From NCBI GenBank assembly GCA_017940265.1, contig JAGAYY010000025.1, positions 64,711-128,710 on the forward strand: a stretch of DNA of 64,000 nt. The letters run 5' to 3'. The stretch is from Bacilli bacterium. GTDB taxonomy: Bacteria > Bacillota_I > Bacilli_A > RFN20 > CAG-826. A program made the translations under genes and the position numbers. How positions within the stretch are numbered: position 1 is the stretch's first letter; each line of letters begins with the position of its first letter. Positions 9,046 through 48,545 of this stretch are shown here, piece after piece. The notes beneath the pieces were generated by a model, which was not told where the DNA came from, did not search any database, and saw only the letters and a program-made list of their open reading frames with translations.

Positions 9046-9093
9046 ATTTCACGCTTCTGAAGCCTTAATAACCTTATGAGTGATAATGATGGG
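9046..9093 (+). promoter_or_regulatory. copy of recurrent intergenic motif (ACGC..GAAGCcTTaAATAACCTTA..TGATGGG)
   Basis: Aligns with the copies at 14368, 29583 and 50001; lies about 80 nt upstream of the helicase-like gene start. Confidence 0.45.
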
Positions 9094-9171: not shown

Positions 9172-11199
9172 ATGTTAAAAAATTATTTTATACAAAGAGA
9201 TGGAAAGACAGTTATATATGTAGAGCGAGGTATTAGATATATGAGCGAATGGACTGATTTCAATCTCAATTTTTTCAATGGTCCTTACATTATAAATAAA
9301 CAAATCCCAGGATGTGGATTTACTGAGTATTGCTTAACCAATAATAATGATATAATATTAGCTTCTCCACGTAAAATACTTTTAGCTAATAAAGAAAATC
9401 AACATCCAGGTGAGATTTTTTATGCTAGGAATGAATTTGAAAAAGAAGATTTAGGTGTAGATAAAGATATATCTATTCCAAATAAACAGAGCTCTGAACC
9501 AGACGAAGAAAACGAAGCGAAAAGAATACATAATGAATTATGTGCTCTAGAGAAAATGGAAGAGAAATTAATGAATTATATTAGTTCTAGACTTATACAA
9601 AGAAAACCTATGAAACTTATTGTTACTTATGACTCTTTTCACCATGTAAGAGAAATTCTAGAGAAAAATTCAATCTTTAAACCTTTTAAGATAGTAGTCG
9701 ATGAATTCCAATCAGTTTTTGTAGACTCTAGATTTAAAGCTTCAACAGAATTTGGTTTTATGAATGAACTAAAACAGGTAAATAATGACATCTGTTTCGT
9801 TAGTGCTACTCCTATGATGGATAAATATCTTAAACAGATTGATTATTTTAAAAATTTACCTTATTATGAATTAGACTGGGGATTTCTAGATCCAGGTAGA
9901 GTTATTAAACCTGAGCTTAAAGTCCGTAAAATTAAATCTGTCTGTTTTGAAATTAAAAGAATTATTGAAGAATATCTAAAAGGGGAGTTTGCTATATTGG
10001 CTAATCCAGTTACTAGCGAATTAGTCCAGTCTACTGAGGCCGTATTTTACGTTAATTCTGTAAACGATATTCTTAAAGTTATTAAAACAATGGGACTTAC
10101 TCCAGATCAAGTTAATATTCTTTGTTCAGATACAACTATTAACCGCAGGAGAATACAGAGAAAATTAGGGAAGAAGTTTGAAATTGGATCGGTCCCATTA
10201 AGGGGTGAGCCTCATAAGATGTTTACTTTTTGTACTAGAACAGTTTACCTTGGAGCTGATTTCTATAGTACTAATGCTAGAAGTTTTATATTATCTGATG
10301 CTAACATAGATTCATTAGCTGTTGATATATCATTGGATCTTCCTCAAATTCTAGGAAGGCAAAGATTAGCTGAGAATCCCTGGAAAAATCATGCGGAATT
10401 CTATTTTAAAACTCTGGGAAAAGAGAAAGATATTACTGAGGATGCATTTAATTCTAGAGTAAAATCTAAATTAGAGTCTACTAATCATAGAATCTCTTTA
10501 TTTATGAAAGGAACTGATACGGAACAAAAAGCTATTATCGGAAACTTTCGAGATAGTATAGTATTAAGAAATTATTCAAATGACTATATCTCTATTAACT
10601 ATAACGGAGGAAGAGAAGTTCCAGTTCTTAATAATTTAGTATTAGTTGCTGAACAGAGAGCTTATGATATTCAACAAATAGATTATAAGGATAGATTTTC
10701 AGTTTTTAATACTATAAATGAGAGTGACGGTTTTAAAATGGATAAAATAAGTAGATTTGTTGAATACTTGAGAGATACTACTTATTCTATTCCAATTAGA
10801 TTAAAAGCCCTATGTGAAACTGATGAATTCTCTGAAGATGAAAAAAGAATTATAGCACAGCAAGCTTCAGAAAATTTTGATAAATACTATAATTTACTTG
10901 GTCCAGAAAGATGTAGAGCAGTTGGATATGATACTACTAGAATTCGAAAGGAAATTTCTGACATGATGATTTCCGAAGAAGATGTCAAAGTACTAATAAT
11001 GGAAAAGTTTTTGGTTGGAAAAAGGTATACTAATGTTTTTATTAAAGAAGAATTAGGAAAAATTTATTCTCAATTAAAACTAGCTAGATCACCAAAAGCT
11101 TCTGATATTGATCTGTACTTAGAAACTAAACCTGTTAAAATATTGGATCAAAATACCCAAAAACGGATACATGGTTTAGAAATTATAAAAATTAAATAA
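9172..11199 (+). CDS. SF2 helicase-like protein with non-canonical motif I, cassette copy 1
   Basis: Motifs PGCGFTEY (I, no Lys), ILASPRKILL (Ia), VVDEFQS (II), VSATP (III), QILGRQR (VI). Start chosen by alignment with the paralog at 45500. Confidence 0.7.
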   Translation: MLKNYFIQRDGKTVIYVERGIRYMSEWTDFNLNFFNGPYIINKQIPGCGFTEYCLTNNNDIILASPRKILLANKENQHPGEIFYARNEFEKEDLGVDKDISIPNKQSSEPDEENEAKRIHNELCALEKMEEKLMNYISSRLIQRKPMKLIVTYDSFHHVREILEKNSIFKPFKIVVDEFQSVFVDSRFKASTEFGFMNELKQVNNDICFVSATPMMDKYLKQIDYFKNLPYYELDWGFLDPGRVIKPELKVRKIKSVCFEIKRIIEEYLKGEFAILANPVTSELVQSTEAVFYVNSVNDILKVIKTMGLTPDQVNILCSDTTINRRRIQRKLGKKFEIGSVPLRGEPHKMFTFCTRTVYLGADFYSTNARSFILSDANIDSLAVDISLDLPQILGRQRLAENPWKNHAEFYFKTLGKEKDITEDAFNSRVKSKLESTNHRISLFMKGTDTEQKAIIGNFRDSIVLRNYSNDYISINYNGGREVPVLNNLVLVAEQRAYDIQQIDYKDRFSVFNTINESDGFKMDKISRFVEYLRDTTYSIPIRLKALCETDEFSEDEKRIIAQQASENFDKYYNLLGPERCRAVGYDTTRIRKEISDMMISEEDVKVLIMEKFLVGKRYTNVFIKEELGKIYSQLKLARSPKASDIDLYLETKPVKILDQNTQKRIHGLEIIKIK

Positions 11200-11200
11200 T

Positions 11201-12192
11201 ATGGTATATGTATTAAAATCTCCTATGTACAATAAGGATACTAATAAATATGGATTAGCAATTAAAATCGGTCATACTGATAATTGGAGTAATAGATTAG
11301 ATGCTTATTTACTACATAATCCAGCAATTCAAGTTATAAAAATCTATGAAAATGGGTCACTCGACGATGAAACTCTTCTAAAGAAGTATTTTAGACCGTA
11401 TCTAGTTCATAGAAACGAATGGTTTAAATATTGTAAAAGTATTTTAGATTTCTTTAATAAATATAATAAGATAGAAGATATTAGGCGCGAACTATCATTT
11501 ATTAAGTTAGAAGAAACACGACCTGCAAATAAAAGATATTTTTATAATTTTGCACGGAGTATAAAAAATATAATGGGATGTAAGGAAAATATCAAAACTA
11601 TTATTGACAATATGTTTAAAATCTGTAATTATAATGAAGAATCTGCATTAAAATATATTTGTGATAAATATCTAGATTATGCTCCGATTATCATTCAAGA
11701 CTATGAAGATGATAAATCTGTATTAACTGAGGAAATGATAGAGATGATAGCTTACTTACAAAATACTAGTATTAAATTTTCAGTGCGCCTAAAGACTTTA
11801 TGTGAATCTACTGAGTATTCTGATGAGGAAAAGAAAATTATATCTCAACAAGCCTCCGAAAATTTTGATAAGTTCTATAATATATTAGGCCCTTCCGATT
11901 GTAGAAGGTTTGGTTATAATATTACTCTTATGGAATCGGAGGTTAAGAATAGAGTTATAACCAAAGATGCAGATGTAATTAAAGAAAGTTTCCTAAGGAA
12001 TTTTAAGGTAGGAGATAGAAAACAAAATCTGACCTCAAACAAGAGATTCAGGCTATATATAATGAGCTAGGAATTTCTAAGAATGCTAAAGCGTCTGATC
12101 TTAATAACTATTTTGAATTGAAAGAAGTAAAAATAACGATTCCTGGAGTTAAGAAACAAGAGAATGGTTTTAAAATTCTAGGTCTAAAATGA
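11201..12192 (+). CDS. T5orf172 (GIY-YIG-like) domain protein, cassette copy 1, interrupted by a frameshift at 12019-12022
   Basis: N-terminus YVLKS...IKIGHTDNW..RLDAY...NEWFKY. The C-terminal module continues in the -1 frame to the TGA at 12190-12192 and then aligns without gaps to the paralog at 47547. Confidence 0.65.
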
Positions 12193-12269: not shown

Positions 12270-12527
12270 ATGAAAGTAATTGAATCAAAAATTTTAATTA
12301 AGCCATTAGGAAAATCTGATGGTGCTGTAGAAAAGTTTGGTGGTTTTGAGGTTCCGGTAGGAGCTGGTCAATATGAATCTGGTAAAGTTATTAGTGTAGG
12401 TTCTAAGGTTGAGGGTGTTTCTGAGGGTGATACTATTTATTATTATCCAGGAGCAGGTAAAGAATTTAATCATGAGGGACAAACCTATCGTGTAATAACA
12501 ACTCCAGAGGTTATTGTAGTTGTATGA
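12270..12527 (+). CDS. groES: GroES-like co-chaperonin (Cpn10)
   Basis: 85 aa; ILIKPL...G..VP...G.YESGKVISVG...GDTIYY fits the Cpn10 pattern; sits immediately upstream of the GroEL-like gene. Confidence 0.7.
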   Translation: MKVIESKILIKPLGKSDGAVEKFGGFEVPVGAGQYESGKVISVGSKVEGVSEGDTIYYYPGAGKEFNHEGQTYRVITTPEVIVVV

Positions 12528-12721
12528 CGCTCTTTGAGAAAACAGAGATCTTTGGGAAAATAGAAGTCCTAGAGATTGATGTGCAAAATAAGATAGCAGC
12601 TAAAGAAAAAGAGCTCCAGGAATTAAGAGATAGACTTATGCTGATTGAAATCATAAGACGACGAGCAGATAAACCTGAAGCTACTAAAGAAAATATTAAT
12701 AAATTTTTAGATATAGTATGA
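12524..12721 (+). CDS. hypothetical coiled-coil protein
   Basis: 65-aa ORF with ATGA-type overlaps on both sides, between groES and groEL. Confidence 0.45.
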   Translation: MTLFEKTEIFGKIEVLEIDVQNKIAAKEKELQELRDRLMLIEIIRRRADKPEATKENINKFLDIV

Positions 12722-14331
12722 CAGGAAAAGTAATTATTTCAGGTGACGAGTCTAGAGAACGCGTCATTGAAGGTGTTAATAAAATTTGTAATGCCATTAA
12801 AGTTACCTTAGGTCCTTCTGGTCGTGGGGTATCTATTTCTGGAGATTGGGGAGGACCTGAGATTACCAGAGATGGGGCTTCTGTTGCTAAGTCTATTCAA
12901 TTTAAAGATCCGGGAGTTAATCAGGGTGCTATGTTGGTTAGAAAAGCAGCGACTTTAACCGAAGAACAGGCAGGTGATGGAACTAGTACTTGTAGTATCT
13001 TAACCCAGGAATTATGCCGTAAGGGATTAAGAGCCCTAAATACTGGAGCTAATGTGAACGAAATTAAGTCCGGTATGTTAAAAGCTCAAAAATGGGTTAC
13101 AGAGTATATTAAGTCCAAGGCAATCAAGGTAGACGGTGACTTAGAACAAATTCGAAAGGTTGCTACTATCTCTGCTAATAATGATCCCGAGGTAGGTGAT
13201 TTAGTGGTAGACTGTATGGGGAAAGTAGGCATTAATGGAGTTCTTACGGCGGACATGGCTTCCGGCTTAGAGACTGTAATTGATGTTACTACTGGCATGA
13301 AAATTGAACGTGGATGGAGTTCACCTCAATATGTTACTTCTCCAGAGGATTCCAAGTGTGTTATGGATGATCCTTATGTCTTAGTAGTAGGTGAAAAAAT
13401 TTCTAGTGTAGCTCAGATTCTTCCTCTCATGCAGCTTATTGTTCCTACTGGTCGCCCCTTCCTATTTGTATGTGATGATATTGATGAGGTGGTTAATACT
13501 ACTCTTGTCATGAATACCTTACAGGGAGCAATCAGATGTTGTGTTATTAAAGGCATTGATTTCGGTGACTCTAGAAAGAACATAATGAATGATATTGCTG
13601 TTGCCTGTGGTGCTACTTTCGTTTGTCCAGAAAATGGTATGGATATTACTGAAGCTACCTTGAAGGATTTAGGTGCCGCCAAGAAAGTTGTGGTAAGCCG
13701 AGATAGTACTATTATCTATGAAGGTGCAGGTGATCCTAAGCTTATTCAAGAGCGTGCCGAAGTTCTTAAGAAAAGATTGGCAGATCCTGGAACGTCGGCT
13801 TATGATAAATCCAAGTTTGAGAAGAGATTAGCTGGATTGGCAGGCGGTATTGGTGTTATCAAAGCTGGTGGTGCAACCGAAGCCGAGAAACAGAACAGAA
13901 AGGCAACAATTGAAGATGCTATATTGGCTGCTAAATCTGCTATTGAAGAAGGTTGTGCGCCAGGTGGAGGTTATGTCTATTATCAAGCCTCTCTAGCTGG
14001 TAAACGAGATAAATCATTCTGGAAGTTTTTGAGTGGCGATGAAACTGAAGGAGCTAAGATTGTATTTGACTCTCTTCCAATCGTAATGTGGACTGTAGCA
14101 GAGAATTCAGGGGCTGCTGGAGATGTAGTTCTTTCAGAGGTAGCCAAATCTAAGAAAGATAATTGGGGCTATGATGCTAAGGCTAAGGCATACTGTAATC
14201 TTTCTGATTCTGGTATCTTAGATTCAGCTAAAGTTCTTAGAGTTGCTTTGGAGAATTCGGTATCTACTGCTTCTATGATCCTATTGATTGATTGTATTAT
14301 CTACGAGGAAGCAACAGAGACAAAAGAATAA
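12718..14331 (+). CDS. groEL: GroEL-like chaperonin (Cpn60)
   Basis: 537 aa; VTLGPSGRGV, AGDGTST, GGATEAE, APGGG are classic Cpn60 motifs; no GGM tail. Confidence 0.9.
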   Translation: MTGKVIISGDESRERVIEGVNKICNAIKVTLGPSGRGVSISGDWGGPEITRDGASVAKSIQFKDPGVNQGAMLVRKAATLTEEQAGDGTSTCSILTQELCRKGLRALNTGANVNEIKSGMLKAQKWVTEYIKSKAIKVDGDLEQIRKVATISANNDPEVGDLVVDCMGKVGINGVLTADMASGLETVIDVTTGMKIERGWSSPQYVTSPEDSKCVMDDPYVLVVGEKISSVAQILPLMQLIVPTGRPFLFVCDDIDEVVNTTLVMNTLQGAIRCCVIKGIDFGDSRKNIMNDIAVACGATFVCPENGMDITEATLKDLGAAKKVVVSRDSTIIYEGAGDPKLIQERAEVLKKRLADPGTSAYDKSKFEKRLAGLAGGIGVIKAGGATEAEKQNRKATIEDAILAAKSAIEEGCAPGGGYVYYQASLAGKRDKSFWKFLSGDETEGAKIVFDSLPIVMWTVAENSGAAGDVVLSEVAKSKKDNWGYDAKAKAYCNLSDSGILDSAKVLRVALENSVSTASMILLIDCIIYEEATETKE

Positions 14332-28942: not shown

Positions 28943-29014
28943 TGGACCATGGTGTAATTGGTAACACGACAGTTTTTGGCGCTGTCTTTCTGAGTTCGAG
29001 CCTCGGTGGTCCAA
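28943..29014 (+). tRNA. tRNA-Gln (anticodon TTG)
   Basis: Hand-folded cloverleaf: acceptor TGGACCA/TGGTCCA, D arm GTGT/ACAC, anticodon loop TTTTGGC, T loop TTCGAGC. Confidence 0.8.
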
Positions 29015-29039
29015 CTATTTTTAACCAATAAAGATAATT

Positions 29040-29507
29040 ATGATAAAGACAATTACTGCCCCAGAGAGTTATGAAAACTTAGAGGGTAAATTTATTTTCT
29101 TAGCAGGAACTATTGATAATGGTGAGTCAGAGGATTGGCAGGCAGAGGTTTCCAAGTATGCAGAAGGATTAGAAACAACCGAAAACGTTTATATCTTAAA
29201 TCCTCGCAGGAATGATTGGAATCCTAACGCTACCGAAAAAGATATTGAGGATCAGATTAAATGGGAGCTCGGTGCCTTGAAAAGAAGTGAGGTTATTATT
29301 ATGAATATACTTGAATCTTCTAAATCACCAATCTCATTACTAGAAATGGGACTGTTTGGTAAGGATAATCCAGGGTTCTATGTATTCTGTGGACCCGGCT
29401 TCTATCGTTATACAAACGTTAGAGTTACTGCTGAAGAGTTTGGAATTAAACACTATTCGGATTATACTACAGATGATATTAAGAAGTTAATCAAATTAAT
29501 AGTTTAA
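29040..29507 (+). CDS. nucleoside 2-deoxyribosyltransferase-like protein
   Basis: FLAGTIDNG.SEDWQ...NPRR.DW...QIKWE...PISLLEMG; paralog of 60715..61284. Confidence 0.5.
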   Translation: MIKTITAPESYENLEGKFIFLAGTIDNGESEDWQAEVSKYAEGLETTENVYILNPRRNDWNPNATEKDIEDQIKWELGALKRSEVIIMNILESSKSPISLLEMGLFGKDNPGFYVFCGPGFYRYTNVRVTAEEFGIKHYSDYTTDDIKKLIKLIV

Positions 29508-29522
29508 TTTCCTTAAAAATAG

Positions 29523-29583
29523 AGAAGACATTAGGTACCGCGTCGTGTTGTTGCGGAGGGAAGGGCCTAGTGTTCTTCTTTTA
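29523..29583 (+). terminator. hairpin terminator
   Basis: AGAAGACATTAGG...CCTAGTGTTCTTCT imperfect long stem followed by TTTT. Confidence 0.55.
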
Positions 29584-29632
29584 AATTGATAAAACGCGTT
29601 CCGGAGGCTTTGAATACCTTACTGATGATGGG
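29583..29632 (+). promoter_or_regulatory. recurrent intergenic motif copy
   Basis: AAATTGATAAAACGCGTTCCGGAGGCTTTGAATACCTTACTGATGATGG. Confidence 0.5.
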
Positions 29633-29638
29633 TGATGA

Positions 29639-29666
29639 TAGCTTTTGAAATTTATTCAAAAGCTAT
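29639..29666 (+). promoter_or_regulatory. perfect 11-bp hairpin in the HNH gene leader
   Basis: TAGCTTTTGAA-atttat-TTCAAAAGCTA, 20 nt before the ATG at 29686. Confidence 0.6.
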
Positions 29667-29685
29667 ATAATTAAAAATTCTAATC

Positions 29686-30153
29686 ATGGAAAACAAAATT
29701 ATGTCATTTTCTGATCAAGAGTTTATAGAAATTATAAACTCTAATATAGGATGGAATCAGATTACTAAAGCTCTTGGGTATGAAACTAAACCCTCTAGTT
29801 TTACTATTAATAAAATTAAAGCTAGATGTGAAAGTTTAGGAATTTCACCAAAGTTAAATAAATTATCCCCAGTTGATTCAGAAACAAAAGATGGCTTATT
29901 AGGTAAACGGAAAAACTATCAAAGTTACAGAACAGCAATTAGAAAAAGAGCTGAAAAAGTATTTTCTAATTCAGGAAAACCATTAAAATGCGCTATTTGC
30001 GGGTATGATCTTTACGTAGAGATCGCTCATATTAAAGCAGTATCTGATTTTCCTGGAGATACGTTAATTTCAGAAATAAATTCTGAAGATAACCTTATTG
30101 CATTATGTCCTAATCATCATTGGGAATATGATCATGGAATTTTAAAATTATAA
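29686..30153 (+). CDS. HNH homing-type endonuclease
   Basis: CAICGY...EIAHIKA...NLIALCPNHHWEYDHG (HNH with Cys pairs). Confidence 0.8.
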   Translation: MENKIMSFSDQEFIEIINSNIGWNQITKALGYETKPSSFTINKIKARCESLGISPKLNKLSPVDSETKDGLLGKRKNYQSYRTAIRKRAEKVFSNSGKPLKCAICGYDLYVEIAHIKAVSDFPGDTLISEINSEDNLIALCPNHHWEYDHGILKL

Positions 30154-30167
30154 TTTAAAGATTAATA

Positions 30168-30189
30168 GTTCGAATCTGTCTCCCGCTAC
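30168..30189 (+). other. tRNA 3'-end-like fragment
   Basis: AGTTCGAATCTGTCTCCCGCTA looks like T loop + T stem 3' arm + acceptor 3' arm + discriminator, but no matching 5' half lies nearby. Confidence 0.35.
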
Positions 30190-30191
30190 AT

Positions 30192-30392
30192 ATGAATAAA
30201 AAACTTATAGAACTTTTACAGAAAAATCCTGAAGCAAATCTTTTTATAGATTGTGGCCAAGGAGATAAATTTCAGGTAATAGGAATAACTGAAAATGAAA
30301 ATAGTGGATCCATTAGCCTTCACATTCACCGAGGAAGTGTTAGGTGGATAGAAATGGATGGAAAACACCCAATTAAACTTAGTACAGAATGA
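30192..30392 (+). CDS. hypothetical protein
   Basis: 66-aa ORF. Confidence 0.45.
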   Translation: MNKKLIELLQKNPEANLFIDCGQGDKFQVIGITENENSGSISLHIHRGSVRWIEMDGKHPIKLSTE

Positions 30393-30631
30393 AATTAGAA
30401 CTTACACGAGGATGTATTTGTGATTCATTAACAGTCGATGATGAAGAAGAAATAGATCTTACAGATGACGTTAGGAAGGAAGTACTTCGAAAAATTTTTG
30501 AAGCTCTAAGACCAGAAGATCTTAATTATGTACTTCAAGAATTAATTCCATGCTTTGGAGAATATGAATGTGATCCAGAACCTTGTGAATGTTGTGGAGA
30601 TTTTGTTGAAACCTATAAATGGGAAATATAG
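30389..30631 (+). CDS. hypothetical Cys-rich acidic protein
   Basis: 80-aa ORF; C-terminal CFGEYECDPEPCECCGDF. Confidence 0.5.
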   Translation: MKLELTRGCICDSLTVDDEEEIDLTDDVRKEVLRKIFEALRPEDLNYVLQELIPCFGEYECDPEPCECCGDFVETYKWEI

Positions 30632-30948
30632 TTATGGATATTACAGGAATTTTTTCAGAGTCATTTTGGTATATGGCTCCAATTTTAATGTCGATCACAG
30701 TTACTATTACTGGTGCAATTAATGGTAGATTTAATATCACTAATGGAATTTGGCCCCAGATAGTATCTTGGATTGTAGGCTCTGTACTTTCAGTAGGAGC
30801 TTGGCTACTTAATTTTGTAACTATGGGTCAACCTGTTTGGCTCGGTGTTATTATGTTATGTGTAGTTGTTGGTCTGTCTAGTAATGGTATCTATGATATT
30901 CCAACTATTCAGAAGCTTATCAAACAACTATTCTATAAAGAACAATAA
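30619..30948 (+). CDS. small membrane protein (three predicted TM helices; holin-like size)
   Basis: 109 aa with three hydrophobic stretches; no enzymatic motif. Confidence 0.5.
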   Translation: MGNIVMDITGIFSESFWYMAPILMSITVTITGAINGRFNITNGIWPQIVSWIVGSVLSVGAWLLNFVTMGQPVWLGVIMLCVVVGLSSNGIYDIPTIQKLIKQLFYKEQ

Positions 30949-31184
30949 AAAGGGTTTATATTACCGACTTCAAACCAGAAACCCTGAACCTTCCTGCCTG
31001 GAATCTTCTTTCATTACTATCTCGCCTATCATCCAGGTTAAACAAAAAGGTGACAGACCATTGGGTAATTCCATAGGAGCGCTGTTAGGAAGTCAAAATT
31101 GTAAGAGGTCGCGCCTCAACGTAACGTATCTCGTCCCTGAGAAATATTCTCAAACGTTGATCTCAATCGTAAGTGAGTATTTTG

Positions 31185-31216
31185 GTAAGTTAACGGTTAT
31201 AAAAACTTACATTTTT
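31185..31216 (+). other. hairpin plus T-run immediately upstream of tRNA-Thr
   Basis: GTAAGTT-loop-AACTTAC followed by ATTTTT. Confidence 0.35.
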
Positions 31217-31289
31217 GCCTCCTTAGCTCAATTGGTAGAGCGCGTGATTTGTAATCTCGAGGTTGTTGGTTCGATCCCGACAGGAGGCT
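31217..31289 (+). tRNA. tRNA-Thr (anticodon TGT)
   Basis: Acceptor GCCTCCT/AGGAGGC, D arm GCTC/GAGC, loop TTTGTAA, T loop TTCGATC; one T-T mismatch in the anticodon stem. Confidence 0.75.
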
Positions 31290-31294
31290 CGAAA

Positions 31295-31368
31295 GGGCTT
31301 GTAGTTCAGTTGATTAGAACGTCTGTTTTGCATACAGAAGGTCCCCCGTTTGATCCGGGGCAGGTCCA
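31295..31368 (+). tRNA. tRNA-Ala (anticodon TGC)
   Basis: Anticodon stem TCTGT/ACAGA, loop TTTGCAT, T arm CCCCG/CGGGG, and an acceptor with a G3:U70 pair. Confidence 0.8.
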
Positions 31369-31498
31369 CACATGCCAAGGTAGAGCGATGCAAGCCAGTA
31401 TCTTGTGCTAGTCTTAGCTATTTTTGATGAAGAAACAGAGTAAATTCTCTGTAAAATAGTAGAAATCCTCTCAACTCAGAAAAAGACTTTTAGTAGCA

Positions 31499-31532
31499 AA
31501 TTAATATAAAAGAGGCCTATTTTATATTAATT
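31499..31532. repeat. 34-nt near-perfect palindrome in a tRNA spacer
   Basis: AATTAATATAAAA-gaggccta-TTTTATATTAATT (13-bp arms). Confidence 0.8.
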
Positions 31533-31655
31533 GGAAGAAGGATGGATTTTATAACCGTAAGGTGAATTTAAGGTAGCGTGCTGAGTTGTCCGAAAACTAA
31601 AAATTGATGTCAAGTAGGACGAGTTTTAGAATTTCTCACCAAAAAATTCTACTAA

Positions 31656-31728
31656 GGATGAGTGGCAGACGTGGTGTATGCATCGGACTGAAAATCCGAC
31701 TAAGGTGATTCAACTTCATCCTCATCCA
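31656..31728 (+). tRNA. tRNA-Phe (anticodon GAA), atypical D arm
   Basis: Acceptor GGATGAG/CTCATCC, anticodon stem TCGGA/TCCGA, loop CTGAAAA, T loop TTCAACT. Confidence 0.65.
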
Positions 31729-31971
31729 CAAGGTTATAGACGAAACTGACCTAGGTAATTAAGTTTCTTGGTATCTGGAATAATTGGCAATTATAAACAG
31801 AGCAATAGTAGGAGTAATTCTTAATGAATAATACAATAGTTAGACGTAGAGCGGTTTTTCGTTTCAGGATGGTTGCTAGTTTCCTGGAGAACCTCCTATC
31901 CAGGGAGTGTGAGTTTGGTAAGCCGGTCAGAACAAAAATACTGGGAAACTCTACAAAAAATTAGCATCTAA

Positions 31972-32051
31972 GCTCCTATGGTGGAATTGGTAGACACGAT
32001 AGATTTAGGATCTATTGCGAAAGCGTGCAGATTCGAGTTCTGCTAGGAGTA
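31972..32051 (+). tRNA. tRNA-Leu (anticodon TAG), long variable arm
   Basis: Anticodon stem ATAGA/TCTAT, loop TTTAGGA, variable arm TGCGAAAGCGT, T arm GCAGA-TTCGAGT-TCTGC. Confidence 0.8.
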
Positions 32052-32055
32052 CTGA

Positions 32056-32143
32056 GGATAGGTGACAGAGTGATTTATTGTAGCGGTCTTGAAAACCGCC
32101 GAACGTTAGTAGCGTTCCGTAGGTTTGAATCCTACCCTATCCG
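32056..32143 (+). tRNA. tRNA-Ser (anticodon TGA), long variable arm
   Basis: Acceptor GGATAGG/CCTATCC, anticodon stem GCGGT/ACCGC, loop CTTGAAA, long variable arm, T arm GTAGG/CCTAC. Confidence 0.8.
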
Positions 32144-32337
32144 CGAGACCAAAGTTCGAGAAAGGTAACCGAAGTGCCTGAAGAACGAATGCTGTTAATG
32201 ATGTACTCGGTATTATAATCATAGTGAACAGCGGCGCCAGATAAGGGAATACTGGCAAAAGAAGAGTGCCAAGCATTTAATGCACCGGAGCAGGGTGACC
32301 TGATTTCCTTAGGTTCCAGATCTCTTCTATTTTATTT

Positions 32338-32409
32338 GCTTGTGTAGCTCAGAGGTAGAGCAAATGGCTGTTAACCATTAGGTCGGGATATCATAATTCT
32401 CCACAAGCG
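32338..32409 (+). tRNA. tRNA-Asn-like (anticodon GTT) with a non-canonical T arm
   Basis: Acceptor GCTTGTG/CACAAGC, D arm GCTC/GAGC, anticodon stem AATGG/CCATT, loop CTGTTAA. The T loop ATCATAA lacks TTC. Confidence 0.5.
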
Positions 32410-44765: not shown

Positions 44766-45051
44766 TATAGTCGTTTATATAGTAGCTACCGGACCTATCT
44801 ATCTCACACCCCTGAAGACAAGCGTAATGGTAGGGGAAACAAAAGAAGAAGCAGTAGTCCGGAGTTGTGAGGAAGCTGGATTAGATGTCTCAGAACTAGA
44901 TCCTCCATATAAGCTGAAGGAAATTAATACCCCAGAAGCTTATGTGACTTATTATGTTTACCAAACTGAGGCCTCTGATCTCAGGGACTTCGTAGCGCAG
45001 GCCAATAATCCGGAACTTAAAGTGGTGGAGGGCACAGTTGAGAGCTTCTGA
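44746..45051 (+). CDS. hypothetical protein
   Basis: 101-aa ORF. Confidence 0.45.
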   Translation: MSLKRIDIVVYIVATGPIYLTPLKTSVMVGETKEEAVVRSCEEAGLDVSELDPPYKLKEINTPEAYVTYYVYQTEASDLRDFVAQANNPELKVVEGTVESF

Positions 45052-45066
45052 AGGTTTTATTTCTTA

Positions 45067-45113
45067 AAATCATATACCTAGTTATCATAGATAACATAAT
45101 ATATGATTTTTTT
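45067..45113 (+). terminator. intrinsic terminator (nested hairpin plus T-run)
   Basis: AAATCATATA...TATATGATTT outer stem, GTTATC/GATAAC inner stem, followed by TTTTTTT. Confidence 0.7.
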
Positions 45114-45344
45114 ATTTCATCTTGGGTCGCCCACCTAGCCCCTCCTCACTTCGTTCGTCGTTGCCCGACCCAAGACTCTGTTCAGGAGACCTGAACAAGA
45201 GGATATCATTATCTCTCCTGAGGTTTTTTAACCGAAGGGAGAGACATAATCAGGGGACCTCTAAGGGACCCTGATATGACATAGATTCTAACGAAGTAGT
45301 AAGGGCTTGTCCCGAACGTTAAGAATCTTTTTGTATATAATAAG

Positions 45345-45401: not shown

Positions 45402-45499
45402 TTTGCTCTTAAAGAGGGCTCAAATCCTAATATATGAATGACAAGAAGCTCTCAACTGTAATTTTGAGAGCTCAGAACAATTTAAAAATAAAAACAAAA

Positions 45500-47545
45500 A
45501 TGGAAAAACATAACATTATTGTACCAAGAGGAATTAGATATATTAGTGATTGGAAAGAATATAATCTTAGAGACTTTCCTTTTCCTCACATCTTAGATAA
45601 AGTATTAACTGGGTGTGGTTATACTGAATACTGTCTCAGAAATGATCAGGATCTAATTCTATGTAGTCCACGAAGAATGCTTTTAGAAAATAAAGAACAG
45701 CAACATCGTGGAGAAATTTTTTATGCTCGAAACGAAGCATGTGATGAAGAATTTGATAGAGTTTTTACAGAAAGCGAAGGAAAAAAGAAAGCAAATCAAA
45801 AAATAATTTATTACACTGATAATACTAGTAGTACATCTTCAATAATTCTAAAGTTAAAACAAGATGTAATTTATTATTATAATAAGAGAAAATCCGAAGG
45901 TAAACCAGTTAAAATTATTGTTACTTATGATTCTTTTCGCCATGTTAAAGAAACTCTATTAAGTTTTAATCTTTTCCAAAATTTTCAGGTAGTAGTCGAT
46001 GAATTTCAATCGGTTCTAGTAGATGTAAAATTTAAATCCAATACCGAATTAGAATTATTAAATCAGCTCTTAGGAATTCAGAGGGTATGTTTTGTATCCG
46101 CTACTCCCATGTTAGATAAATATCTAGGTAGACTAGATGAATTCAAAGAATTGCCTTATTATAAGTTAGATTGGGAAACTAAGGATCCTGGACGTATTAT
46201 TAATCCTAACCTTCAAGTGCATAAAACTGACAGTATTTTTAAAGATATTACTAAAATAATAACAAAATATCAAAATAATCAATTTGATGCTGAATCTTGG
46301 GTGGATGATAGTGGGTTGATTCATGAAACTCAATCTAGAGAAGCAGTCATATATGTTAATTCAGTTAAGACTATTTGTAGTGTAATTACTAGATTTGGAT
46401 TGACTTTAGATAATACTAATATTCTATGTGCAAGAACACCAGATAATGAAGAAAAACTTCGAAAATCATTTAACGAAGTCCAAAAAAGATCTGGACTTGA
46501 TAAAAAATATAAGAAAGAAGATCAAATCATAGGATATATTCCAAGAAAAGGTGAGCCTCATAAGATGTTTACCTTCTGTACTCGAACTGTATACTTAGGG
46601 GCGGATTTCTATTCTACTTGTGCTAAGACTTATATTTTTAGCGACAGTAATATAGAATGTCTATCTGTTGATATTTCCCTAGATCTTCCTCAAATTCTGG
46701 GAAGACAGAGATTAGATGAAAATCCTTGGAAAAATTCAGCTGATCTCTATATTAAAAGTACTTTGGCTAAATTGTCTAGAGAAGATTTTGATAGAGAATT
46801 AAAACAGAAAATAGAAATTACCAATGATCTTCTTCTTTCTTATAATACAACTCCAACTAATAAAGCAAAACATTCGTTAGCTTCTGCTTATGAAGACAGA
46901 GTTAAGAGCCTATCTTATAAAAAAGATTATGTAGCAGTTAACCATCATGCAGGTTCAGATCTTATCCCGGTATTCAATAACCTAATGCTAGTAGCAGACG
47001 AAAGATCTTTCGATATTCAACAGATAGATTATAAAGATAGAGTTTCTGTGTTTAATACCTTGAAGAATAAAGGATTTATTACAATTGATGTTGATAAAGA
47101 ATTAGAAACCTTTAACAGTATTCCTTATTATCATGATAAGATGAGATACGTTTGCCAGCTTAGTAATACTCTAGACTCTATACATTTTGATCTATTTCTT
47201 AATTCTATCTCTAAAGATTATAAAAATTATTACGTTGTATTAGGTTCAGAAGGATGCAGTGCTTGTAAATTTAGGAGAAAAGAAATGGAAATAGAATATC
47301 AAAGGATAATAGGAAATCAAAGAGTAGATTTTCATTTAGAATTAGATAAACAATTTAAAGTGGGAGAAAGGTATCTATTTTCTGATATAAAGAAAATCCT
47401 GACTGAAATTTATAATTTAGTTGGATATCAACAAACTCCAAAAGCAACTGATCTTGAGGAGTGGTATGTTCTCAAATCTTGTCAGATTACTAATCCAATA
47501 ACAAAGAAAAGAGAACATGGTTATAAAATATTAGCTAAGAAATGA
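45500..47545 (+). CDS. SF2 helicase-like protein with non-canonical motif I, cassette copy 2
   Basis: TGCGYTEY, ILCSPRRMLL, VVDEFQS, VSATP, QILGRQR; start by alignment with copy 1 (the ORF opens at 45434). Confidence 0.7.
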   Translation: MEKHNIIVPRGIRYISDWKEYNLRDFPFPHILDKVLTGCGYTEYCLRNDQDLILCSPRRMLLENKEQQHRGEIFYARNEACDEEFDRVFTESEGKKKANQKIIYYTDNTSSTSSIILKLKQDVIYYYNKRKSEGKPVKIIVTYDSFRHVKETLLSFNLFQNFQVVVDEFQSVLVDVKFKSNTELELLNQLLGIQRVCFVSATPMLDKYLGRLDEFKELPYYKLDWETKDPGRIINPNLQVHKTDSIFKDITKIITKYQNNQFDAESWVDDSGLIHETQSREAVIYVNSVKTICSVITRFGLTLDNTNILCARTPDNEEKLRKSFNEVQKRSGLDKKYKKEDQIIGYIPRKGEPHKMFTFCTRTVYLGADFYSTCAKTYIFSDSNIECLSVDISLDLPQILGRQRLDENPWKNSADLYIKSTLAKLSREDFDRELKQKIEITNDLLLSYNTTPTNKAKHSLASAYEDRVKSLSYKKDYVAVNHHAGSDLIPVFNNLMLVADERSFDIQQIDYKDRVSVFNTLKNKGFITIDVDKELETFNSIPYYHDKMRYVCQLSNTLDSIHFDLFLNSISKDYKNYYVVLGSEGCSACKFRRKEMEIEYQRIIGNQRVDFHLELDKQFKVGERYLFSDIKKILTEIYNLVGYQQTPKATDLEEWYVLKSCQITNPITKKREHGYKILAKK

Positions 47546-47546
47546 T

Positions 47547-48545
47547 ATGATTTATTTAATTAAATCCGCCGCATTTAAAGAGGGTGGAGGATATGAAACT
47601 ATTTTAAAAATTGGATATGCAAGTGAGAATTCTATGAGATATAGAGAAACTGCTTATCGTACTGAAAATCCAACTTTTAAAATTATTCAAACGATCCATG
47701 GAGGAGACTTACAAGATGAAACAAATCTACATTATAAGTTTTGTCATCTCCTGAGATATGGAAGAGAATGGTTTAGTGAGGATGAAGAGATTTATGAATT
47801 TTTCAGATCTCACACTACAAAAGAATCATTACAAGATCTAGAAACACATTATTCAATACGAAAACAAAAAATTATAGACTCTGAAGAAAAACTTAGGCCT
47901 AGTAGACTTAGTTGGATGATAGGGAAAGTTTTAGAAACAAAATCAGGGATTGATTATATTTTATCTCTAGAAGAATTGATAAATACATTAGGATCTTTAA
48001 AATCTGATAAAGATAAACAAGAATTCTTAGTATTAACTTATCCAGATATAAATTTTGAGCAACAAGCCATAACATCAGACGGAGTATTAGGTGCTCTCAA
48101 TACCTTCAATTCTTTCCCGACTTTTGCAGAGAAACTTAGATACATACATGAAGTTGAAGTTACTCTAGGATCTGAACAAATGCCGCTGTTCCTAGATTCA
48201 ATTCCTCTTAAATTTAAAAATTATTATCTGGTGTTTGGTGATACTAGGCTTAAGGCACTGGAGTATCGAGAAATAGAAATTACTAGAGAATGGGAAAGGA
48301 TTAAAAATAACTCAGAACTAGAAAGAGATCTGATTTCAGCTATTGAATCCGTTTTCAAGGTTGGTGAAAGATATACTAAGGCTCAGATCAAAGAAAAACT
48401 TCGAGAAATCTATCAGGAACTAGGATATAAACAGTCGCCAAAAGCTACAGACCTAGAAAAATGGTTTATATTAAAGTCTATTATGTTTACAAATAAAGAA
48501 ACAGGTAAACGTGATGCTGGTTTTGAAATCTTAAGCCGGAAATAA
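47547..48545 (+). CDS. T5orf172 (GIY-YIG-like) domain protein, cassette copy 2
   Basis: IYLIKS...LKIGYASENSMRYRE...YGREWFSE; its C-terminal 140 aa are homologous to the C-terminus of 45500..47545. Confidence 0.7.
   Translation: MIYLIKSAAFKEGGGYETILKIGYASENSMRYRETAYRTENPTFKIIQTIHGGDLQDETNLHYKFCHLLRYGREWFSEDEEIYEFFRSHTTKESLQDLETHYSIRKQKIIDSEEKLRPSRLSWMIGKVLETKSGIDYILSLEELINTLGSLKSDKDKQEFLVLTYPDINFEQQAITSDGVLGALNTFNSFPTFAEKLRYIHEVEVTLGSEQMPLFLDSIPLKFKNYYLVFGDTRLKALEYREIEITREWERIKNNSELERDLISAIESVFKVGERYTKAQIKEKLREIYQELGYKQSPKATDLEKWFILKSIMFTNKETGKRDAGFEILSRK

Follow-up and report, generated by a model that had tools for sequence, protein, structure and literature searches.

T-even phages possess free-standing homing endonucleases of the GIY-YIG type (Seg and Mob, the agents of 'intronless homing'), in which an N-terminal catalytic domain is combined with a C-terminal binding domain. 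Their small genes lie beside conserved genes or between them, are present or absent among close relatives, and are linked to divergence of the neighboring gene. Mitochondrial mobile endonuclease open reading frames (mORFs) were first described in Allomyces macrogynus atp6 and later in Glomus atp6, atp9, cox2, and nad3; a copy of the C-terminal part of the host gene is inserted and the native C-terminus is left downstream (PMC3630166). Odn (Gp88) of phage ICP1, an origin-directed chimeric nuclease, joins a T5orf172 nuclease to a domain that binds DNA and was copied from a different protein (PMC8263062). Here, we analyze a stretch of 64,000 nucleotides (the window) of contig JAGAYY010000025.1 (positions 64,711 to 128,710, forward strand; assembly GCA_017940265.1), which contains two cassettes, each composed of a helicase-like gene, H, followed by a smaller gene, N. 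We propose, with a probability of roughly 65%, that each cassette consists of a resident H and of a homing-endonuclease-like T5orf172 gene, N, located at the 3′ end of H, with the C-terminal half of N being a copied 3′ end of H. By analogy with mORFs, the order of the parts (H core, tail a, stop codon, nuclease domain, tail b) would be that of a mobile endonuclease open reading frame (ORF) that moves together with a substitute 3′ end of the gene hosting it and leaves the resident 3′ end downstream.

Both cassettes are carried by the plus strand. Cassette 1 comprises H1 (9172 to 11199), which encodes a protein of 675 residues with a predicted superfamily 2 (SF2) helicase fold, starting at M33 of an ORF that opens at 9076, and N1 (ORF 11201 to 12070). 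Cassette 2 comprises H2 (45500 to 47545), encoding a protein of the same predicted fold and of 681 residues from M23 of an ORF that opens at 45434, and N2 (47547 to 48545). A previous reading of the window made from its letters and translations (the sequence-only reading) had noticed that cassette 2 repeats the architecture of cassette 1, which it does, and had placed the start of H2 at 45500. The latter position, as well as the start of H1 at 9172, was agreed upon by gene callers on independent assemblies and by all homologues. In each cassette, N starts 1 nucleotide past the stop codon of H. The H and N genes are among the ORFs of the window with the lowest guanine-plus-cytosine (GC) content (0.28 to 0.32 versus 0.351, standard deviation of 0.037).

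The four proteins H1, N1, H2, and N2 all terminate in a homologous module of about 150 residues. In H1, the tail common to N1 extends from 10681 to 11196; the similarity begins at DYKDRFSVF and covers a helical sub-domain followed by the last 63 residues, encoded from 11008. The module of H2 (47102 to 47542) likewise consists of a helical part and of a terminal unit, encoded from 47354. In N2, a predicted nuclease domain of the T5orf172 type in the GIY-YIG superfamily (47547 to 47876) precedes the module (48096 to 48542), which is homologous to the H tails and has its terminal unit from 48354; it was modeled with a predicted local distance difference test score (pLDDT) of about 90. BLASTP comparison of the modules revealed 45% identity between H2 and N2 over 149 residues (E = 6 × 10–38) and 39% identity between H1 and N1 over 121 residues (E = 8 × 10–26), with E values of 2 × 10–15 to 5 × 10–3 across cassettes. 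In a four-way alignment, which included N1 after repair of a frameshift (see below), identity was 40.7% and 45.6% within cassettes and 26.4–30.3% across cassettes, regardless of protein type. Eleven parsimony-informative columns favored grouping by cassette, one favored protein type, and two were crossed; bootstrap support for the cassette grouping was 100%. This signal is mainly contributed by the helical first part of the module (about 80 residues; 37–44% identity within and 14–22% across cassettes), the last 63 residues or so being conserved family-wide (38% and 57% within, 37–46% across).

The sequence-only reading had claimed that each module resembles its own cassette partner, and had named grouping by protein type as the contrary outcome. 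The latter was not seen in the tree of the four modules. The motif QQASENFDK.YN.LGP was indeed confined to H1 and N1, and the motif assigned to cassette 2 to H2 and N2, after a one-residue correction of three gap lengths. The claim holds for these four modules taken alone; upon addition of paralogues, a robust partner grouping was left for cassette 1 only. Among paralogues of the same phage population, the module of N2 displayed 46% identity with that of H2, and 49%, 45%, and 44% identity with three other H tails, and it clustered with other N modules once further paralogues were included. Cassette 1 remained a clear partner pair (41% identity versus at most 30% with anything else).

The origin of the N tails was more directly accessible at 80 related jumbo-phage loci. 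The module was present in all 80 H proteins, and N was found directly downstream from H in 29 to 33 of them (about 40%), some 60% of the H genes having no N. Locus groups were defined by a common downstream flank. Seven of these groups contained both genomes with N and genomes without N, with flanks 94–100% identical, i.e. a presence/absence polymorphism at the same site of the kind expected for a homing endonuclease gene. Three haplotypes were found at one locus: core b with tail b (L027), core a with tail a followed by the nuclease and tail b (L035), and core a with tail a (L050). The N tail and downstream flank of L035 were 99–100% identical in nucleotide sequence to the H tail and flank of L027 (99% identity between the tails at the amino acid level), whereas the N tail was only 54% identical in amino acid sequence to the tail of its own partner. 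Between the same two loci, identity was 57–85% for the H core and 94–100% for the upstream flank. The junction between nuclease and tail is in frame (DD[M/I] followed by VNQEV). In the same manner, the N tail of L079 matched the H tail of the N-less loci L033 and L034 (98.7% of nucleotides, 99% of amino acids) rather than its own H tail (67% of nucleotides; 66–67% for L035 and L079 considered together). Thus, in both L035/L027 and L079/L033/L034, the downstream copy is orthologous to the 3′ end of the allele lacking the ORF and the upstream copy is foreign, which is the arrangement of an mORF. L043 compared with L057 is a weaker case (83% identity of the N tail, versus 71% with its own H). The complementary pattern was observed for L035/L050 and L056/L045, in which the H tails are 98–99.8% identical and N is a clean insertion; the empty site is clean for L056/L045, and the insertion is bordered for L035/L050 by a repeat of about 25 nucleotides made by the two module ends.

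For ten of 13 non-redundant N modules from loci represented by more than one genome, the similarity of the partner's tail was equaled or exceeded by that of an H tail from another genome at the same locus, the latter tail being the closer one for nine of them. The two tails of one cassette were 65–78% identical in nucleotide sequence, which equals the divergence of the H-tail alleles at that locus (66–76%). We attribute the within-cassette likeness to both tails coming from the pool of H 3′ ends present at the same locus. Since the similarity spans the whole module, it indicates homology by descent, an H 3′ end having been either duplicated or captured, and can be explained without a target common to both partners.

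At three sets of loci (L027/L031/L035, L043/L066, and L079/L033), the H genes are 75–83% identical between flanks that are 97–100% identical, the divergence setting in abruptly where the gene starts and ceasing as abruptly at its end or at the module boundary. As judged from these comparisons, H is a locally hypervariable, allele-swapped gene.

The N-terminal domain of N is predicted by profile, fold, and catalytic-type residues to be a nuclease of the T5orf172/MUG113 type (GIY-YIG superfamily). N1 matched the Pfam families PF13455 (MUG113; 27.8 bits for a cut-off of 22.3) and PF10544 (T5orf172; 20.7 bits for a cut-off of 20). N2 itself had no match in Pfam; many of its homologues bear PF10544 or PF13455. 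The structural model of N2 (pLDDT of 88.9) had fold matches in BFVD to viral MUG113 and T5orf172 proteins (E = 4 × 10–8 to 3 × 10–4). A Foldseek search of the whole model against the Protein Data Bank (PDB) returned nothing significant because the model is multi-domain (predicted template modeling score of 0.51). Residues Y3, G23, R33, and E74 of N2 were invariant, and Y24 nearly so, across 42 homologues; N1 contains Y3, H24, and the corresponding arginine and glutamate, as read from its sequence. No near-identical DNA was detected in 50,697 phage records, and tblastn with N2 detected no homologue in phages.

The N1 ORF is cut short by a 1-nucleotide deletion that shifts the frame at 12019, in a run of A residues (12017 to 12026). 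Frame A (11201 to 12019) encodes the predicted nuclease domain, a linker, and the first part of the putatively H-derived module. The –1 frame (frame B, 12019 to 12192) continues for 57 codons with the intact conserved end of the module (KTKSDLKQEIQAIYNELG...GFKILGLK) and stops at 12192. The same 289-residue product is encoded by every independent assembly listed with the whole gene (nine places), indicating that the frameshift is real and fixed. N1 thus appears to be a recently inactivated or truncated N. A second decayed N, a frameshifted remnant, was present at L030. Degenerate copies such as N1 and that of L030 are those expected from the invasion-decay cycle of homing endonuclease genes. 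N modules are under purifying selection (ratio of nonsynonymous to synonymous divergence, dN/dS, of 0.12–0.36), indicating that the N tails are working protein parts rather than decaying remnants. At locus L001 (6153 to 7181), the N gene of a related phage contains four in-frame stop codons, all TAG, no frameshift, and a terminal TAA, whereas the adjacent H contains no in-frame stop codon. This would point to recoding of TAG, or to a nuclease expressed late with the help of a suppressor, more than to decay.

The terminal unit of the module (63 residues) is predicted to adopt a beta-alpha-alpha-beta-beta fold in the N2 and H2 models (pLDDT of about 90). It is basic (mean net charge of +3.8), the helical sub-domain being acidic to neutral (mean net charge of –1.2). 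Foldseek only detected weak local matches of the terminal unit (winged helix of TFE-alpha, probability of 0.2–0.3), and searches with the module profile in PDB sequences and Pfam returned chance-level matches only. The terminal unit occurs in two or three tandem copies in some N proteins (P0130, P0244, P0245, and P0347), as does the whole module in P0241. The basic charge and the tandem arrays would fit a nucleic-acid-binding unit. The part of N that is derived from H differs in length between lineages: about 150 residues in cassette 2, about 170 in cassette 1 (from DYKDRFSVF), and about 290 in a third class that begins at ENPWKN, just past helicase motif VI. The latter class comprises six cluster representatives of 465–489 residues (P0237, P0255, P0280, P0295, P0306, and P0358); the N tail of L017, which belongs to the long-tail class, is 62% identical to its own H over 273 residues. 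This variation indicates that the fusion was made more than once.

A search of 1.84 billion representative proteins with the module profile returned 1,918 matches, among which we classified the 136 newly returned proteins of the best 150. They comprised 67 N-type proteins, 33 H-type proteins, six N proteins with the longer H-derived tail, and 30 short fragments, and no other architecture was found among these 136 proteins. The module is therefore not the promiscuous phage domain that the sequence-only reading had envisaged as an adverse outcome. Use of the nuclease domain alone as a query for tails borrowed from other host genes returned two protein matches and three loci: two loci were further H-N cassettes, and the third (L114) had an unrelated tail of which no copy was present nearby.

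H1 and H2 are 42% identical over 691 residues (E = 2 × 10–174). The conserved segments on which the sequence-only reading had based the conservation of the cores, GEPHKMFTFCTRTVYLGADFYST and LDLPQILGRQRL.ENPWKN, were found in both H proteins and in neither N protein, and the exact nucleotide runs that it had listed are present (10204–10226 equal to 46550–46572 and 10336–10352 equal to 46682–46698). Recent gene conversion or exchange between H1 and H2 was ruled out as the source of these runs by codon statistics: codons were identical at 167 of the 298 alignment columns with identical residues, against an expectation of 146 based on codon usage, with a nucleotide identity of 58% overall. The runs result from invariant residues combined with AT-biased codon use.

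An AlphaFold2 model of H2 (pLDDT of 78.7) is indicative of an SF2 helicase fold. Foldseek retrieved 215 PDB matches at E ≤ 10–3, including Brr2, Hjm/Hel308, WRN/RecQ, and the origin-binding protein of herpes simplex virus 1 (HSV-1) at E = 10–7 to 10–8; all 50 matches listed (E ≤ 6 × 10–6) were superfamily 2 helicases. Motifs II (DEFQ), III (SAT), and VI (QILGRQRL) were invariant in all 21 aligned H sequences. By its fold and these motifs, H2 resembles SF2 helicases that carry a C-terminal DNA-recognition domain, such as the RQC winged helix of RecQ/WRN and HSV-1 UL9. In contrast to these enzymes, H has Y, F, G, or A at the position of the Walker A lysine and belongs to no Pfam, NCBIfam, or PHROG family. 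The P-loops of the window (9310–9330 and 45605–45625) conform to the consensus TGCG[Y/F]TE found in 21 of 21 aligned H sequences (TGCGFTE in H1), and distant phage homologues also lack the lysine (AGVGGTT in Psychrobacter phage D'Alembert and TGCGATH in Acinetobacter phage Phab24). The family retains motifs II, III, and VI and an invariant lysine four residues upstream. H is either a pseudo-ATPase or a protein with an unusual P-loop, and its ATPase activity is uncertain because of the replacement of the Walker A lysine. No match to H was found among Pfam, PHROG, NCBIfam, or PADLOC models.

Metagenomes contain more than 5,300 homologues of H, with several copies per genome, on contigs of 180–400 kb. 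The phage population of about 394 kb to which the window belongs contains at least five H genes (H1, H2, and three others) and three N paralogues. Gut jumbo phages designated 'Jug', rich in homing endonucleases, are reported to have genomes of 360–402 kb (PMC12880540); the size range of many of the related viral contigs (330–400 kb) overlaps with this. Only seven H loci were detected in 185,579 species genomes of bacteria and archaea, all in contigs of metagenome-assembled genomes (MAGs), indicating that H is a phage family and not a bacterial defense system; PADLOC provided no match at E ≤ 0.1. Distant single-copy homologues of H with the module were present in two cultured phages of about 93 kb, followed by an HNH endonuclease in D'Alembert (L103; DAL_143/DAL_142) and by a GIY-YIG-like protein in Phab24 (L104; id070/id071); neither of these adjacent endonucleases carries the module. 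In single assemblies of the phage population of the window, H2 was split into ORFs of 101 and 478 residues (L082, 3955–5999) and the GroEL gene into ORFs of 251 and 273 residues (L095, 4949–6562), which are either polymorphic disruptions or assembly errors.

Phage genes for GroES-like and GroEL-like proteins (Cpn10/Cpn60) lie directly 3′ of cassette 1 (12270–14331), and a tRNA cluster (28943–32409) provided seven Rfam matches, six of which were also predicted by ARAGORN (Gln, Thr, Ala, Phe, Leu, and Ser). A region of 394 nucleotides located 5′ of H2 is flanked by a perfect 16-nucleotide inverted repeat (45034–45049, ACAGTTGAGAGCTTCT, and 45444–45459, AGAAGCTCTCAACTGT), and its GC-richer core (45105–45340) folds with a z score of –4.5. 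This region, which had no match in Rfam and of which no second copy was present in the window or at the 80 related loci, may encode a small structured RNA or represent a miniature inverted-repeat element. An RNA or repeat located 5′ of both H genes was considered as a candidate cognate site and rejected, as homology between the two upstream regions is lacking, neither of them matches Rfam, and significant structure is limited to that of H2. Promoter and terminator scans gave results at chance level.

The proposed capture of an H 3′ end by N suggests the following mechanism. N would be made by coupled translation after H, and its H-derived tail would bring it to whatever the H tails bind, probably nucleic acid. 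N would then break the N-less alleles of co-infecting phages. During repair from the N-carrying genome, homology would be provided on the right by tail b together with the downstream flank and on the left by the upstream flank, since H cores that are 78% identical recombine poorly, and the whole diverged H allele would be carried along. This carry-over, which we infer, would account for the sharp boundaries of H divergence. N would afterwards decay or be deleted, as the frameshift in N1 may illustrate.

The sequence-only reading explained the likeness of the modules in another manner, namely that both partners must recognize a cassette-specific target. What it had observed stood, as the modules neither group by protein type nor belong to a promiscuous domain; the target itself was not supported, as N tails often match other H alleles better than that of their partner. 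Developed into a full alternative, this explanation would make H and N a helicase-nuclease machine, directed by the common module to one cassette-specific DNA target, with selection keeping the modules matched. We consider it unlikely, although the modules of the window do group by cassette, N modules are under purifying selection, N starts and H stops are 1 nucleotide apart in both cassettes, and the module is confined to H and N proteins. The basic terminal unit, in tandem in some N proteins as are DNA-binding units, and the nucleases that also follow the H homologues of the two cultured phages point in the same direction. However, a machine of this type is difficult to reconcile with the absence of N from about 60% of the H loci, and selection for matched modules with N modules that share 99% of residues with a rival H allele's tail and only 51–54% with that of their own partner. 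H alleles with 100% identical modules were paired with N modules only 66–78% identical to each other; between L043 and L061, synonymous divergence (dS) was 1.6 for the N module and 0.05 for H, and the synonymous divergence was mosaic. The N module of L010 was 25–27% identical to that of its partner and 57–58% identical to the H tail of another cassette, and the module of N2, as mentioned above, is as near to three other H paralogues (44–49%) as to H2 (46%). The nucleases located next to distant H homologues are devoid of the module, and the absence of a PADLOC match together with seven loci in 185,579 genomes, all in MAG contigs, also argues against this explanation.

The same mismatch between partners bears on the idea that the module mediates homotypic protein-protein contacts, N docking on H or on a partner of H by tail-tail pairing and the likeness of the tails preventing cross-talk between paralogous cassettes. 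As one phage population of about 394 kb contains five or more paralogues of H and three or more of N, insulation would be needed, and the cassette signal resides in the helical sub-domain, whose acidic to neutral character makes it a less likely nucleic-acid binder. Such docking is nonetheless improbable, since the N tails are closer to other H alleles than to those of their partners and H works without N at most loci. Least probable of all, in our opinion, is concerted evolution of a single ancestral H-N pair, in which adjacent modules would be homogenized at times by gene conversion between tandem repeats. The modules are indeed directly repeated at a distance of about 1 kb, a stretch of about 25 nucleotides is nearly identical at their 3′ ends, and the identity between partner tails varies continuously from 25% to 71%. 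Against this, the H tails and N tails of the orthologous cassettes of L026, L042, and L075 form separate lineages without sign of conversion, the DNA identity of modules within cassettes is only 65–78%, and conversion cannot produce an N tail 99% identical to the H tail of another genome together with its downstream flank.

Several points also weigh against capture of the H 3′ end by a mobile nuclease gene. We infer all the activities of N on which this proposal depends (cleavage, binding, and homing). For the cassettes of the window, the model leans on homologous loci, the closest polymorphic ones having an H at most 47% identical to H2. N-less alleles of the two loci of the window were not found: 8 and 10 independent contigs displayed the same arrangement, and a metagenome scan returned nothing. 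Positional homologues of both loci in distant phages (L012; L025, L047, and L058; the L018–L028 group) had H tails no closer to N1 and N2 than other H tails. The haplotype changes may represent gain or loss of N. Three nuclease families follow H homologues, which could equally mean a functional partnership of helicase and nuclease, and the start of N, always within a few nucleotides of the stop of H, is compatible with a co-operating pair. Finally, purifying selection implies that the N tail has a function, which might be to match H. Co-specificity and tethering are possible functions of the captured tail, which we rank below simple capture.

A further, doubtful extension of the capture model is that N retargets itself: fused to the 3′ end of a displaced H allele, it may inherit the binding specificity of that allele, as Odn does with RepA. 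N would then be a weapon against co-infecting phages still bearing this allele or its cognate site, and successive sweeps would drive the divergence of H alleles (20–25% of nucleotides) between genomes with flanks 99–100% identical. This extension requires that the H tail bind a specific sequence in cis, inside its own gene or close to it.

If correct, the capture of H 3′ ends by N explains the hypervariability of one gene family among otherwise identical genomes of gut jumbo phages. It also calls for caution in reading genomes, as a partner-specific likeness between domains of adjacent genes can reflect local duplication by a selfish element and not co-evolved specificity.

To our knowledge, elements made of an endonuclease ORF and a replacement 3′ end are otherwise known from fungal mitochondria, and the H-N cassettes would extend this type of element to phages. 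The order of the parts is the same in mORFs and in H-N cassettes: gene core, inserted C-terminus, endonuclease ORF (GIY-YIG or LAGLIDADG in mORFs), and native C-terminus. In both cases, the native copy matches the allele lacking the ORF (91% of nucleotides in mitochondria, 99% at the H-N loci), and the two copies present in one genome have diverged (63.5% nucleotide identity in mitochondria, 65–78% in H-N cassettes). The native C-terminus of the mitochondrial elements generally persists as a remnant that is not translated, and in some of them the gene upstream is fused to the endonuclease. In contrast, the downstream copy of the H-N cassettes is fused in frame to the nuclease, forms the whole C-terminal half of every member, and is under purifying selection. 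The displaced 3′ end would thus have been recruited as the C-terminal domain of the nuclease itself instead of being left as junk. The H-N cassettes also differ from mORFs by their host, which is a multi-copy phage gene, and by the swapping of the whole H allele along with the insert. Compared with the Seg and Mob endonucleases, N displays the same modular design, the same presence/absence polymorphism, and the same linked divergence of the neighboring gene, whereas the binding domains of Seg and Mob are not known to be copies of the product of a neighboring gene or to create a duplicated 3′ end. Odn, like N, associates a homing-endonuclease-related T5orf172 domain with a copied domain, which is 42% identical to PLE RepA_N (versus 41–99% for N and the H tails), and the Odn nuclease inherits the targeting of the copied protein. 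The borrowed domain of Odn is N-terminal and originates from a hostile satellite, and both DNA binding and cleavage have been demonstrated; that of N is C-terminal and has as its probable source the neighboring phage gene H or an allele of it. The origin of Odn-like chimeras was previously only inferred, and the H-N cassettes would provide a concrete route by which T5orf172 nucleases gain new targeting domains.

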